Below, piece by piece: positions 20,053 through 26,447 of a stretch of DNA of 64,000 nt (within the stretch, counting starts at the first letter, position 1; each line of letters starts with the position of its first letter). The notes beneath the pieces are model-generated. The model was given only the letters and a program-made list of their open reading frames with translations, made no database searches and was not told the DNA's origin. Origin of the DNA: Saccostrea echinata (Eukaryota); the NCBI RefSeq assembly GCF_033153115.1, contig NW_026889782.1, forward strand, positions 31,992,001 through 32,056,000, read 5' to 3'. Position numbers and translations under genes: made by a program.

Positions 20053-20187
20053 TGTTGTTGTTGTGAATTAAAAACCTAAGAAAAAAAAAAATTCTGGTGT
20101 TGTTGGTTTTTCCGCATCGACTAAAAATAGATATCCCAAGGTATATAAATCTTAGCTTTGAGTTCACTGTGCTCATTTTTTTCAATC

Positions 20188-20637
20188 ATGCCTTCTGTGT
20201 GGAGAATGTCGTATTTTCTTCACCAAGAAAATAGTGCCTGTCCTCATTGCCATAGGCAGTTGAGAGAGATCAGCAGATTACCTGAGTATGACAGTGACGA
20301 CGACGACCTTATTGGTTGGTATTGGGAATGTAATGAATGTGGAGAACGTATACCTCACTGGGAAGTAGACGATCCCCCTAGTTTGCGGTATTGTCGCTGT
20401 GATTGGTGCCTGAAATATTACCTGTGGAAATATGGAGTTGATTTTATGATGCCACGTTGGGCTAAGCGCATGAGAAGAAATACCAAGATCGAGAGATGCC
20501 CCTCCTGCTGGGAAGAAAACACCCAAGGAAAATGGAAATGTCAACAGTGTATGAAATATCCCTGCTGTGAAAAGTGTTACAAGTCCATTATACGGCTTTC
20601 TTACAGAAGTTGTCCCTTGTGTCGATTTGAACAATAA
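20188..20637 (+). CDS. Zn-ribbon + all-Cys RING-like protein (putative E3 ligase), copy 1
   Basis: CPHC...CNEC, CRCDWC, then CPSC-x10-CQQC-x4-CCEKC-x11-CPLCR. Confidence 0.8.
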   Translation: MPSVWRMSYFLHQENSACPHCHRQLREISRLPEYDSDDDDLIGWYWECNECGERIPHWEVDDPPSLRYCRCDWCLKYYLWKYGVDFMMPRWAKRMRRNTKIERCPSCWEENTQGKWKCQQCMKYPCCEKCYKSIIRLSYRSCPLCRFEQ

Positions 20638-20691
20638 TAATAATAAAAAAAAAACTATAAAACCAAACCAGGTCTTATTTTTCTCAGCTGA

Positions 20692-21120
20692 ATACATGTG
20701 ATGACGTCACAATAGGCAGCTTGATGACTTGAATCGGTGCCAAGTTTATGCCCTAGGTAAAAAACCTGAGGTTTTTTTTTTTTTTAAATCTATTTTTAGA
20801 CTTTGGAAAAACCAATAGACTTAAAAAAAAATAAATCTATTTTTAGACTTTGGAAAAACCAATAGACTTAAAAAAAAAAATTTATTTTTTGACTTTGGAA
20901 AAACCAATAGACTTAAAAAAATTTATTTTTTGACTTTGGAAAAACCAATAGACTTAAATAGAGTAAGAACGTGTGAAGCACGTGTGGGTTTTTTCAAAGC
21001 GACTATAAATAGTCAGATCCAAAGGTATTTAAAGCTGAGCTTTTTTAAAAAAAATTTCACAAAGCGACTGTAAATAGTCAGATCCAGAGGTATTTTTTAA
21101 AGCTGAGCTTTTTTTGTGAA
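20692..21120. promoter_or_regulatory. Internal repeat-rich regulatory region: CRE, NFI-like site, 4x (TCTATTTTTAGACTTTGGAAAAACCAATAGACTT), 2x ~60-bp promoter repeat
   Basis: Repeats read directly; the same unit recurs at 30753-30897. Confidence 0.6.
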
Positions 21121-21161
21121 AAAAAAAAATTTCACCACCACCACCACCACCACATTTCATC

Positions 21162-21614
21162 ATGATTTTTATGTGGAGACTGAAGTATTTCTTTGAGGTA
21201 GAAAAGTATTACTGTCATTACTGTGATAGGGAGATGATCCATGAGCGTACATTTACGGTGTATGATCATCCAGGATGGCATCACAGAACTTATCAATTTT
21301 GCGAGCATTGTGAAATGGCTTTTCCTCACTGGTTTGTGGATGATCCCCCTTCCATGGAGACCTGTGGATGTAGATGGTGCGTGAAATATTTCACATGGAA
21401 GTACGGGGCAGAGAATATGGTGCCCCTATGGGTCAAAGTGACCAAGAAGAGAGCCTTAAAGAAATGTCTGACCTGCTGGGAGGAAAATACGGAGGGGAGA
21501 TGGAAGTGCCAACAATGCCGACAGTATCCATGCTGTGTGAAATGTGTCGAGAACTTCGTCAAGATTTGCTACAGACTTTGTCCATTATGTAGATATGAAG
21601 GAAATAAATCATAA
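21162..21614 (+). CDS. Zn-ribbon + all-Cys RING-like protein, copy 2
   Basis: Shares PHW.VDDPPS...C.C.WC.KY..WKYG and C..CWEENT.G.WKCQQC..YPCC.KC...CPLCR with 20188-20637. Confidence 0.8.
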   Translation: MIFMWRLKYFFEVEKYYCHYCDREMIHERTFTVYDHPGWHHRTYQFCEHCEMAFPHWFVDDPPSMETCGCRWCVKYFTWKYGAENMVPLWVKVTKKRALKKCLTCWEENTEGRWKCQQCRQYPCCVKCVENFVKICYRLCPLCRYEGNKS

Positions 21615-21755
21615 AATCAAAAAAAAAACTGTTGTTGGGTTTTTCCTGAGATGCTAAAAATAGATTGGATAAGGTTATATAAAGAGGTATGACCCCCAAA
21701 AAAATCATTCATTCTGAAAAAGTTCATTGTCCAAGTCAGACGTGTTTTAAAAAAG

Positions 21756-23440: not shown

Positions 23441-23508
23441 GACAGGAAGGGGTATAAAAAGGAGTCCCCGGAGTGCATTTAGGTCAGTCTGACACGAGTC
23501 ATGAAAAC

Positions 23509-24282
23509 ATGCAGTATCATCCCGGATTATTGAGACAAAGAGGACACGGACAGTTTGTCTATCATAGAGGTTTATTACGTCAAAAAGGACACGGTATTTT
23601 AGGATCCTTGTTTAAAGTAGCAGCTCCCTTAATAGGAGGATTATTTGGAGGAGGCCAACAGCAACCACCCCCACCCCCACCCTATTATTATCCACCCCAA
23701 AACTATCAAAGAGGGGAAGGATTTTTTACGGATTTACTGAAATCGGGGGCTAAACACGCCTTGACCGCTGCTGCTAGAACGGGGTTAGACGTGTTAGAAA
23801 ATAAGAGATCTTTAAAAGACGCTGTCAAAACTCACGGAGTACAAGCCCTGAAAAACACTTCGGGAATGGTGAAACAAAGAATGAATCTAGGAGGTACTAA
23901 GAAAAGAAGAAGAAAGAGAATGAAAAAACAGAGGGGATCGGGAATGGTGATTAAAATAATAAGAAGAAAAAGACGACAGAGAGGCAGAGGATTTTTTACG
24001 GATTTACTGAAAACGGGAGCCAAACACGCCTTGACCGCTGCTGCTAGAACGGGGTTAGACGTGTTAGAAAATAAGAGATCTTTAAAAGACGCTGTCAAAA
24101 CTCACGGAGTACAAGCCCTGAAAAACACTTCGGGAATGGTGAAACAAAGAATGAATCTAGGAGGTACTAAGAAAAGAAGAAAAAAGACACCTGTGTTAGC
24201 CCGAGGAGGTCCTAAGAGAAAAAGAAAAAAACAAGGAGGAATTCAGACTAAGAAAACACGTCCTTTAGATATCTTTGATTGA
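23509..24282 (+). CDS. Basic core/membrane-active precursor with repeated Q(R/K)GxG cleavage-like motifs and an internal duplication
   Basis: QRGHG, QKGHG, QRGEG, QRGSG, QRGRG, mostly followed by amphipathic helices (ILGSLFKVAAPLIG; FFTDLLKSGAK); ends DIF; immediately upstream of MCP. Confidence 0.8.
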   Translation: MQYHPGLLRQRGHGQFVYHRGLLRQKGHGILGSLFKVAAPLIGGLFGGGQQQPPPPPPYYYPPQNYQRGEGFFTDLLKSGAKHALTAAARTGLDVLENKRSLKDAVKTHGVQALKNTSGMVKQRMNLGGTKKRRRKRMKKQRGSGMVIKIIRRKRRQRGRGFFTDLLKTGAKHALTAAARTGLDVLENKRSLKDAVKTHGVQALKNTSGMVKQRMNLGGTKKRRKKTPVLARGGPKRKRKKQGGIQTKKTRPLDIFD

Positions 24283-24356
24283 GAGACACTATAAATAGGG
24301 AAGTCGAGTGAGATTGACCTTCATTTGTGAAAAATCCATCCTAGTAGACAGACATC

Positions 24357-25778
24357 ATGTTGCAACCAGATTCCTGTGCGTGTGGGATGAACAATTTACA
24401 ATTGTTCCAAGTCCCCCCGACTAATATTGCTTTAGAAGACTCCAAATGGGAAGAATATTACCCCATTTCTAGTACTTTAGATTCGGATACGGCTCCCATT
24501 GAATTTGAAATTAAAGGACAAGGAGATCAATATCTGGATTTATCTCAAACGTATGTTCAAATGGTGTGTAAATTCACCAAAGACGATGGTACTGATCTGA
24601 CTGGAGCTGGCACCACTTGCGCCCCGGTGAATAATATCTTTCATTCCTTGTTTACGGAAATCGATCTCAGTGTCAATGGAAAAATAGTGTCTCCGGGAAC
24701 CGATACTTATCCTTACAAAGCTTATCTGGAGAAATTACTTTCTTACAAACCCAGAACTTTAATGACACAGATGAGAGCCTGTAGTCTGTGGGAAAAAGAT
24801 ACGGCAGGACACATGGACGAAGTGGGGGTAGCAGACCTTGGAGTGGCTCAAAATAAGACATTTGATGTAACCAAAGGTGGAAGTGGTGCTGCCGATACTG
24901 TGGTCATTGACGAACCCATCGTCCCAGAGTTACCGGCCAATTCTAGAAACGAAGGATTTAGAAAACGTCACCAGGCCATCAAAGATAGTAAGAAAATAGC
25001 CTTGTTTGATCGTTTACATCTGGATCTATTTCAACAAGACCGATTTCTACCCAATGGAGTAGACGTCCGTTTGAGATTTAATCGAGCTAGACCTCAGTTC
25101 TATATGATGATCAAAGCACTAAGTACGGGAAAAGTGAAAATATTGAACATGGTCTTGTGGGTGAGAAAAGTCAAACCCACGGCCGTCATGATGAATGGCA
25201 TTAATCAAAGTTTGAACACTCATAGAGCCAAATATCCTTTGAGAAGAGTGGAAGTGAAAACCTTTACCATACTGACAGGAACTCAATCTAAGATTACGGA
25301 TCATCTGTTTCAAGGCCAGATGCCTAAACGTCTCATTTTAGGCTTTGTGGAAAATGCGGCTTTTAACGGAGATAAAACTAAAAATCCGTTTCATTTTCAA
25401 AACTTTGGAATTAAGAAATTAGATGTCAGTATCAACGGAGAGACCATGAGTACTCGTTGTTTTGAGCCCAATTTCAATGAAGATTTATATCTGAGATCTT
25501 ATCTGAGTCTATATCAAGCCTTGGGAAAATTAGGAGAAGATTGGGCTCCGGACATCACCCTAGAAGAGTATAAAAACGGATACACTCTGTGGGGCTGGGA
25601 TTTCACCAAAGATCAAGAAGCGCAATCGGAAAAATTCCACATCATAGAAACCGGAAATCTGAGAATAGAAGTCCAATTTACGAACAATACGGTGAACACC
25701 TTAAATTGTGTGGTGTATGCAGAATTCGATAACCTGTTAGAAATTAACAAACAGAGAGAAGTGAGTATTGATTACTAA
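24357..25778 (+). CDS. MCP: Major capsid protein (double jelly roll)
   Basis: L.LF.VPPTN, PIEF.I.G....[52 protein letters not shown]...AFNG....[13 protein letters not shown]. Confidence 0.95.
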
Positions 25779-26281
25779 TGGATACGGGACAGTTGAGAGA
25801 AGTCTTATCCAGAGAATTAAAGAGTTCTTTTGGTGGAGTGTACCCTTTGGATATATTACCGGATCAATTAAGACTTGGAGAAAAAGCCATCGTGGTGAAT
25901 ACGGATCCTCAAGATCAACCTGGAGAACACTGGGTGTGTCTGTACGTGAGCAGTCCAGTGGTGGAATATTTTGACTCTTATGGATTTCCTCCCTTACAGA
26001 AAGAAATTCAAGACTTTATCCAGCGTCATGCTCACCAATGGATTTATAATCCGTACCGATATCAAGATTGGAAGACCGATGTGTGTGGACAATATTGCGT
26101 GTATTATTTACATCAAAGACACAAGTTGAGAAAGAAAGCAGACGAGTGGTTATTCCCCTTTGACCATAGCACAGCTTTACAAAGAGATCATTATGTAGCT
26201 CAATGGTTTAAAGACACTTATCATAAAAAACCTACGGGTCATGGACAAACTTGTCAATGTTTCTATCAAAATGTCATGTAA
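25778..26281 (+). CDS. Adenain-like cysteine maturation protease
   Basis: VNTD....PGEHW (His), YFDSYG (Asp), Q.....VCGQYC (Gln/Cys). Confidence 0.95.
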   Translation: MDTGQLREVLSRELKSSFGGVYPLDILPDQLRLGEKAIVVNTDPQDQPGEHWVCLYVSSPVVEYFDSYGFPPLQKEIQDFIQRHAHQWIYNPYRYQDWKTDVCGQYCVYYLHQRHKLRKKADEWLFPFDHSTALQRDHYVAQWFKDTYHKKPTGHGQTCQCFYQNVM

Positions 26282-26447
26282 TTAATTGTTGTTGTTATCA
26301 ATAAAAAAGAATTGGAAAAAAAAAAAAATCTGTGTTCTTGTTGTTTTTTTTTTTTTTTAAAAAAAGGGGGGTTTTCCCATGATACTAAATATAGATAGAA
26401 AAAGGTATATATAAAAAAGAAAAAAAAAATAGCCTCATTTGTTGATC

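Follow-up and report, generated by a model that had tools for sequence, protein, structure and literature searches.

A repeated kB-like and MEF2-like promoter module in a Maverick/Polinton element of the oyster Saccostrea echinata

The element and its repeated module

The 64,000 nucleotides (nt) of Saccostrea echinata DNA analyzed here (contig NW_026889782.1, positions 31,992,001 to 32,056,000; hereafter referred to as the window) contain a Maverick/Polinton element, in which a short promoter module is repeated before several genes. The module consists of a kB-like sequence (box 1; strict form GGTTTTTCC), a MEF2-like box of the form CTA(W)4TAG and a TATA box. The element is delimited by AGTAGT termini, 82-nt terminal inverted repeats and a 6-bp target-site duplication (TATGAA), a duplication of this length being the rule for Maverick/Polinton elements. 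Among its open reading frames (ORFs), Pfam recognizes a protein-primed family B DNA polymerase (PolB; PF03175, E 3.6e-59), an IAP, a packaging ATPase (Pox_A32, E 3.6e-6, above the cut-off), a retrovirus-like integrase (rve, E 6.3e-11, with a chromodomain also present) and a zinc-knuckle gene. The features are listed in Table 1.

An original prediction, made from the letters of this DNA, had described the module as one of fixed spacing, shared by accessory genes and responsive to host immune signaling. The four modules that it quoted (20105-20149, 20986-21033, 21637-21683 and 26368-26415) are present base for base, as are a site before the IAP gene at 14630 and a minus-strand variant with a 5-nt spacer at 30779. 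The variant claimed before ORF 19582 was not recovered: the first box is missing there, and the second is only partly present. That before the IAP gene holds in part, as the kB-type site is present but the promoter has no MEF2-like box.

Box 1 in its strict form is found at 13 places in the element, every one of them within its 5123 intergenic bases, and is absent from the 42 kb of flanking DNA; when the intergenic DNA was shuffled 500 times with dinucleotides preserved, the mean count was 0.17 and the maximum 2. The composite of box 1, 4–9 nt and CTA(W)4TAG is found nine times in the element (four with a 7-nt gap, five with a 5-nt gap) and never in the flanks, a count reached in none of the 500 shuffles (maximum 1); the full three-part module occurs five times, and no shuffle contains one. 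The comparison with a shuffled background, which the original prediction had proposed, therefore places the module counts beyond all 500 shuffles, for patterns that were defined after seeing the data and with five 5-nt composites that are copies of one repeat unit. This result establishes that the pattern is non-random, but not that the copies arose independently. On its own, CTA(W)4TAG does not stand out: six sites lie in the flanks, four of them in a 155-bp satellite. Four units of this satellite carry CTAAAAATAG.

The claim of a fixed spacing stands for the gap between the two boxes in four modules (7 nt), but the gap is 5 nt in five further copies, and the distance from the MEF2-like box to the TATA box varies (11, 13, 12, 11 and 18 nt in the five modules). 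The spacing of the parts is thus not invariant, as it would be in a composite element of fixed geometry, and box 1 is multimerized and present in both orientations, in the fashion of enhancer sites. Other readings of the module were discarded. An AAGG motif, listed as a separate part in the original prediction, was rejected, as G-rich 5' flanks also precede the TATA box of the IAP gene and of the basic virion protein gene. GATA, STAT or CArG readings of the spacer are, by eye, inconsistent across copies. No Rfam match to a structured RNA was found over the module.

Table 1. Features of the element and their positions in the window.
Feature	Position	Strand	Remarks
Maverick/Polinton (adintovirus-like) element	10283..32243	+	21,961 bp; insertion site in a 27-bp satellite; termini, PolB, ATPase and integrase
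Left terminal inverted repeat	10283..10364	+	Partner 32163-32243; 98.8% identity over 82 nt
DNA polymerase promoter	10388..10520	+	Box 1 three times, reverse orientation, in a 31-nt repeat; cAMP response element (CRE) 10470-10477; TATA 10483; initiator-like TCATT, A at 10517
DNA polymerase B, protein-primed, two ORFs	10547..14584	+	Stop at 12056-12058; PF03175
IAP promoter	14630..14691	+	Symmetric kB-consensus site; TATA 14657; TCAGT initiator
IAP (BIR + RING)	14693..15235	+	PF00653 E 6e-21; PF13920 E 2e-11
Accessory gene A1	19582..20052	+	Paralog of A2 (25% identity, E 4e-11); promoter with TATA and initiator, without box 1
Module M1	20105..20177	+	Box 1 -70..-62; 7 nt; MEF2-like box -54..-45; TATA -33; initiator-like TCATT
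Zn1, Cys-rich gene	20188..20637	+	RING-like C-terminus; no Pfam hit above cut-off
Box 1 array	20786..20958	-	Four tandem copies, 5-nt spacer; MEF2-like box intact in two; back to back with M2; homologous to 30751-30897
Module M2	20986..21033	+	Lacks an initiator where one would be expected; a decayed duplicate follows (21062-21116)
Zn2, Cys-rich gene	21162..21614	+	RING-like C-terminus; two unnamed homologs only; weak similarity to RING3; RING-type leads under 0.9
Module M3	21637..21709	+	Initiator-like TCATT, A at 21707
Accessory gene A2	21756..22250	+	Paralog of A1
Virion block	22317..26281	+	Penton-like gene (two ORFs), basic protein, presumed major capsid protein, candidate protease; TATA + initiator promoters without box 1
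Module M4	26368..26439	+	Initiator-like TCATT, A at 26437; box 1 fits the kB consensus
Macrodomain-like (Appr-1-p processing type) gene	26448..26948	+	PHROG 335 E 1.7e-19; phage Appr-1-p processing proteins ~30% identical
RING3 accessory gene	28448-29167	-	Without box 1
GADD34/CReP/DP71L-like locus, two overlapping ORFs	30135..30691	-	PF10488 E 3e-5 (below cut-off); PPP1R15B E 1.6e-4; DP71L E 0.016
Module M5	30704..30894	-	Three copies of box 1 + 5 nt + MEF2-like box; TATA 30737; near-initiator TCATA
Divergent side of the M5 control region, before the zinc-knuckle gene	30916..30961	+	GGAATTTCC site; box 1 at 30953 in polymerase-repeat context, 93% over 28 nt to 10418-10445
Zinc-knuckle (CCHC) gene	30988..31836	+	PF00098 E 2.6e-18

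Core promoters and the genes that carry box 1

The modules had been proposed to be promoters, and the question of their start sites was approached from the sequence, using the initiator motif TCAKT. Its A lies 30–36 nt downstream of the TATA box, counted from the first T, in 12 of 14 hand-listed promoters, for a background of 2–3% per position; in an unselected count, TCAKT stands at the proper distance from 13 of the 28 plus-strand TATA boxes of the element, versus 2/16 on the minus strand and 5/154 in the flanks. The initiator is present at M1, M3 and M4, with a near match at M5. In M1, M3 and M4, counting from the predicted start, positions -70 to -59 hold box 1, -54 to -43 the MEF2-like box, and -33 to -31 the TATA box. 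Starts are predicted at 10517, 14689, 20175, 21707 and 26437 and, on the minus strand, at 30704. An initiator thus follows the TATA box as expected, for predicted start sites, and the modules almost certainly sit on genuine RNA polymerase II (Pol II) promoters of the TATA and initiator type. The same core precedes nearly every gene of the element (10483-30737), in some cases within upstream coding sequence. It recurs in distant Maverick loci (described below) at 6/32 plus-strand TATA boxes in L001 and 5/10 in L002; the counts in L003, L006 and L007 are 1/13, 0/1 and 0/14, respectively.

Box 1 is not distributed evenly among the genes. It lies within 200 nt of the ATG in seven of nine accessory genes (IAP, Zn1, Zn2, A2, the macro-like gene, the GADD34-like locus and the zinc-knuckle gene) versus one of eleven core genes (p 0.0045), the core genes being those similar to related loci, with two assigned by position only. 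The single core gene is that of the DNA polymerase, where box 1 is triplicated beside a CRE. At these eight genes, box 1 is a sequence of 9–10 bp of the GG(T)5CC type. Five of the accessory genes with box 1 add an optimal MEF2-type box ∼45–60 nt before the predicted start. In the virion genes, the core stands alone.

The proposed association with accessory genes therefore stands for seven of the nine, but has to accommodate the three copies before the polymerase. Similarly, the notion of a counter-defense regulon suits the IAP, the PP1-binding GADD34/CReP/DP71L-like ORF and, in all probability, the macro-like gene. However, Zn1, Zn2 and A2, the genes behind three of the four strict modules, have only two to three unnamed homologs and no assigned function. 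Because box 1 is triplicated before the DNA polymerase, the class needs a wider label: box 1 would mark an early class made of the polymerase and the accessory genes, and not of counter-defense genes alone, the order of expression being a presumed one.

Conservation of the boxes and their candidate readers

Among M1–M4, the pairwise identity is 51/60 for box 1, 54/60 for the MEF2-like box, 14/42 for the spacer and 37/138 for the upstream sequence (0.28 being expected by chance), in pairs that are not independent and for boxes that had been picked for their likeness. A less circular comparison is that of Zn1 and Zn2, whose promoters are 79% identical over 61 nt (best local match), while the genes are identical at 78/143 third codon positions and 3/11 four-fold sites, with 44% amino-acid identity. 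The original prediction of selection on the motifs, with a free spacer sequence, agrees well with these values (85–90% identity in the boxes versus 33% in the spacers, for 28% by chance). Since the boxes were kept while the spacers drifted to chance, and since the Zn1 and Zn2 promoters outlast silent codon sites, the boxes are probably maintained by selection, and I consider it very likely that they are functional.

The modules cannot, however, be counted as independent copies, as self-comparison shows that they spread by duplication. One copied cassette includes the end signals of the upstream gene (20045-20111 with 26279-26348, 76% over 71 nt), the box 1 array is duplicated (20786-20958 with 30751-30897), and the polymerase repeat 10418-10445 is copied at 30937-30964. 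The module thus does not appear to have arisen repeatedly. The array at 20786..20958 has no gene of its own and is enhancer-like.

One explanation for this pattern is that a single strong promoter, constitutive or tissue-specific, was copied before each newly gained gene, with the boxes setting strength or cell type (for instance in a MEF2-rich tissue) and no dependence on a signal. The cassette-level duplication is indeed visible, as are the Zn1/Zn2 and A1/A2 paralogs, and the boxes fit the kB consensus poorly. Nonetheless, both boxes were kept while the spacers decayed to chance, which indicates that the boxes matter; their multimerization and the full kB site at the IAP gene suggest an inducible factor, and the virion genes manage without them. 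I therefore regard a signal-independent cassette as improbable.

The original prediction assigned box 1 to Rel/NF-kB/Dorsal factors. As a clean kB site this does not hold, the consensus GGGRNWYYCC fitting only two of the 16 intergenic boxes (IAP and M4), and a 5' GGG being present in five. In active insect kB sites, the 5' GGG is described as the part that is conserved (PMC4742911). GG and (C/T)C ends are nonetheless kept in all 16 boxes, in the fashion of a site for a dimer. This conserved GG...CC dyad, together with the consensus sites at IAP and M4, favors a Rel dimer, whose binding to box 1 I predict with about even confidence. The string GGGTTTTTCC, presumably a Dorsal-type site, occurs in a Dorsal-regulated enhancer, where it is not labeled as a site, and a text search for GGTTTTTCC with NF-kB led to a paper in which this string belongs to an NFKBIA primer.

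Read on the other strand, 12 of the 16 boxes contain WGGAAA, presumably an NFAT-type core, and four, including all three polymerase copies, contain the NFAT5 pattern TGGAAANNYNY. Box 1 could then be read by an NFAT-type Rel-homology factor together with MEF2, namely NFAT5/TonEBP, the only NFAT known in invertebrates, and the input would be osmotic or calcium stress instead of immunity. Cooperation between NFAT and MEF2 has been described (PMC6505634), and kB elements can be bound by NFAT (PMC6147668). However, only one of the four 7-nt modules has WGGAAA, while three have GGG; the GG at the far end, not needed by a monomeric NFAT core, is invariant in 16/16 boxes, and the IAP and M4 sites are of kB consensus. 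An NFAT reader is therefore quite unlikely.

The MEF2 identity of the second box is better supported, the CTA(A/T)4TAG core being present in all five modules. The extended form KCTAWWWWTAGM, a MEF2 consensus obtained by SELEX (systematic evolution of ligands by exponential enrichment; PMC3807682), fits 6/10 sites of the element, but among M1–M4 only M3. Binding of MEF2 to this box is somewhat probable. The box is not a compound MEF2-TATA site, a separate TATA box lying 11–18 nt downstream in 5/5 modules. The TATA box of the capsid promoter reads CTATAAATAG; yet TATAAATAG is also present in L001.

The protein that binds the boxes may also be one of the element's own products (A1/A2, a RING or the zinc-knuckle protein) or come from a helper virus, as with the promoters of mavirus, which are read by CroV (Cafeteria roenbergensis virus). 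Box 1 is repeated near the left end and in internal control regions, as is common for element-specific sites, and is lineage-restricted; several accessory proteins have no assigned function, and mavirus offers a precedent (10.1101/068312). Against this, Pfam recognizes no sequence-specific DNA-binding domain among the ORFs, two unrelated boxes that each resemble a host site would be a coincidence, and the core promoters are of the host Pol II type. I consider such a factor distinctly improbable.

Oyster REL1 and REL2 are activated by heat and bind a kB probe (PMC11552224), so a Rel input need not be immune-specific, and would sense stress as well as infection. The same paper reports DAP-seq (sequencing after affinity purification of DNA) of CgREL1/2 in C. 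gigas, with three broad peaks (∼0.5–1.4 kb, 6–11 reads per kilobase per million in each of the four pull-downs) spanning 3.8 kb at an F54H12.2-like gene, and a further peak at a second one (genes Cg01446, Cg01447 and Cg03239; PMC11552224). I give these peaks no weight in either direction: three of them tile the DNA upstream of the capsid gene, a part in which the element has no box 1, the methods name no input control (PMC11552224), and collapsed repeats give the same pattern. The peaks over capsid-like loci are probably a copy-number signal.

The interpretation that I tentatively prefer, at slightly less than even confidence, is that an early class of genes, switched on by immune or heat signaling, is defined by a host Rel-family factor and MEF2 acting on Pol II promoters of the TATA-initiator type. 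A cassette made of the upstream gene's end signal and the promoter would have been copied from gene to gene, with selection keeping both boxes while the spacer drifted to chance. Oyster Rel1/Rel2, as the Rel-homology factor, and host MEF2 would bind the boxes, which is the less secure step; MEF2 would hold the promoter quiet or poised, and Rel would supply the signal. Upon immune or heat stress, the polymerase and host-modulating genes would be expressed first, and the virion genes would follow by another route. That the outcome is a signal-driven wake-up switch is doubtful. So too, and somewhat unlikely, is a two-class program in which the polymerase, anti-apoptotic, anti-shut-off and macrodomain genes are induced jointly by host Rel and MEF2 on infection or heat, and one gene is timed to S phase by a histone-type 3' end. 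If true, this program would be a first defined trigger by which an animal provirus of the Polinton type is woken with no giant virus as helper.

Several observations weigh against control by host Rel and MEF2. GGGRNWYYCC is missed by 14 of the 16 boxes, and 11 lack a 5' GGG. Because the module copies are paralogous, their equal spacing may simply be inherited. Two accessory genes, A1 and RING3, have no box 1, and M2 has no initiator. The contrast between accessory and core genes is partly confounded, several core genes having coding DNA upstream, and when restricted to core genes with their own TATA box it stands at 7/9 versus 1/7 (p 0.04, from hand-entered counts). The strict module is absent from all 14 distant Maverick loci recovered by a scan of genome contigs (23–42% capsid identity; nine are under 9 kb, and many are short fragments without accessory genes), with one loose match in L013. 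Lastly, the polymerase and penton-like genes are both broken in the present copy, which may thus be inactive: the polymerase is one uninterrupted 1321-aa ORF in the related locus L001, where the penton-like gene, cut at 22877/22879 in the element, is also a single ORF. The element contains 13 homopolymer runs of at least 12 nt, and some of these breaks may therefore be assembly errors.

Related loci, known systems and further observations

The 14 related loci are most likely host DNA in binned genomes. No homologs of the nine accessory genes were found in them, and, judged from this set, the module is lineage-restricted. The presumed major capsid protein of the element has 373 homologs, named F54H12.2-like, a family that I take to be that of the double jelly-roll major capsid proteins, and is syntenic in related loci; a sequence search against solved structures returned no match. 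It is 97% identical to a S. echinata protein whose cluster has 95 members, and the Maverick family therefore appears to be young and multicopy in rock oysters. In related loci the candidate protease is conserved behind the capsid gene; its best PDB match is the African swine fever virus protease S273R, at E 0.088. For an OTU-like domain in the N-terminal polymerase ORF, there was no Pfam hit above the cut-off, and no profile or fold test was aimed there.

The core gene order of the element is that of L001 and L002. In the work on adintoviruses, virions were reportedly inferred from gene content. The element resembles Maverick/Polinton adintoviruses with a pfam03175 (Alpha-type) PolB in its polymerase, rve integrase and packaging ATPase, in its presumed capsid and candidate protease genes and in its terminal inverted repeats (PMC8502044). 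It differs by nine additional genes, among them IAP, GADD34-like, macro-like and RING-like ones, and by the shared upstream module, which L001 and L002 lack. The passages on adintoviruses in PMC8502044 describe no promoter logic.

Host control of viral promoters is known elsewhere. In white spot syndrome virus (WSSV), also an invertebrate DNA virus, shrimp Dorsal and Relish drive wsv069 (ie1) and other promoters (PMC6683665); many early genes are there under host NF-kB factors, as predicted from sequence for the element. In WSSV this was shown experimentally, for a large exogenous virus with kB, STAT and AP-1 sites in place of a repeated kB-like and MEF2-like pair. The BZLF1 promoter of Epstein-Barr virus (EBV) has MEF2 and CRE-like sites that form a latency-to-lytic switch (PMC8706188), and the element has MEF2-like boxes and four CRE sites. 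However, EBV uses one switch gene where the element has many promoters, it has no Rel-like partner site, and NF-kB is tabulated as a negative regulator of its reactivation (PMC8706188). Drosophila antimicrobial-peptide promoters likewise combine MEF2 and NF-kB near the TATA box of invertebrate immune genes, but there the MEF2 site is the TATA box itself, and not 11–18 nt upstream of a separate one (PMC3807682). Finally, the mavirus provirophage is likewise Maverick-like and integrated, and its trigger, CroV, is indicated by a shared promoter motif; its host is a protist and a giant-virus factor reads the motif, in contrast to the host Pol II cores and host-factor-like boxes of the element (10.1101/068312). 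Promoter motifs or host-factor control in animal Mavericks were not found described among the papers listed by the literature searches (titles and the starts of abstracts, with few subscription papers). As far as searched, the module is a variant of known viral promoter logic that had not been described.

The module turns the question of what triggers animal Mavericks, and of whether they are still virus-like, into tests of binding, start sites and expression. It is short, repeated and positionally defined, and separates the polymerase and accessory genes from the virion genes. If host immune or heat signaling drives the genes with boxes, disease and heat waves in oysters would bring about the expression of endogenous IAP, GADD34-like and macrodomain genes, which could be taken for immune genes of the host. 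The compact promoters might also be of use as inducible tools in bivalve cells, for which promoters are scarce (PMC9661190).

A separate observation concerns RING3. Directly after this non-histone gene lies a histone 3' untranslated region stem-loop (RF00032, 36.5 bits, cut-off 34), with a weaker tandem copy (28320-28366 and 28378-28423, minus strand) and a purine-rich stretch downstream. This stem-loop is normally confined to replication-dependent histone mRNAs, and its position suggests that a viral gene undergoes 3' processing of the histone type, coupled to S phase, which is possibly more surprising than the module itself. There is no other match in the window, and among the 14 related loci only L007 has one (504-549, minus strand, 35.8 bits), after a small C2H2 zinc-finger ORF (573-842, minus strand). 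L007 also encodes a TBP-like protein (1189-1695, plus strand; PF00352, E 1.2e-27) adjoining the integrase.

Regarding the other accessory genes, the structure model of A1 (predicted local distance difference test, pLDDT, 70.7) gave a best Z of 5.8, and no Foldseek hit at E 0.001. The macro-like protein has no Pfam hit and no PDB sequence match, and its single-sequence fold model is of poor quality (pLDDT 46.7), making the fold search from it uninformative. Its first 21 codons (26447-26509) are duplicated within the zinc-knuckle gene (31674-31736, 84% DNA identity). The two ORFs of the GADD34-like locus (137 and 167 aa) lie in different frames, with the PP1-binding motif in the 167-aa ORF only.

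Perfect CRE sites (TGACGTCA) occur at 10470, 20702, 30075 and 31987 in the element, all intergenic, with three more in the flanks. Those at 20702 and 31987 are followed by a shared NF-I-like stretch, TTGAA-N5-GCCAA, and through the CRE and this stretch 20700-20760 resembles the right subterminal region. The right end carries four 41-nt repeats (32069-32225) and the left end two. Recent internal duplications are found in the basic protein gene (211 nt, 23707-23917 and 23977-24187) and the zinc-knuckle gene (90 nt, 31371-31557), and long AT-rich stretches free of ORFs span 26949-28200 and 29250-30130, the second with a 170-bp tandem duplication. The flanking host DNA contains 155-bp and 167-bp satellites and large nested inverted repeats, 96–100% identical (2254-3580, 57201-57864 and 42965-55122).

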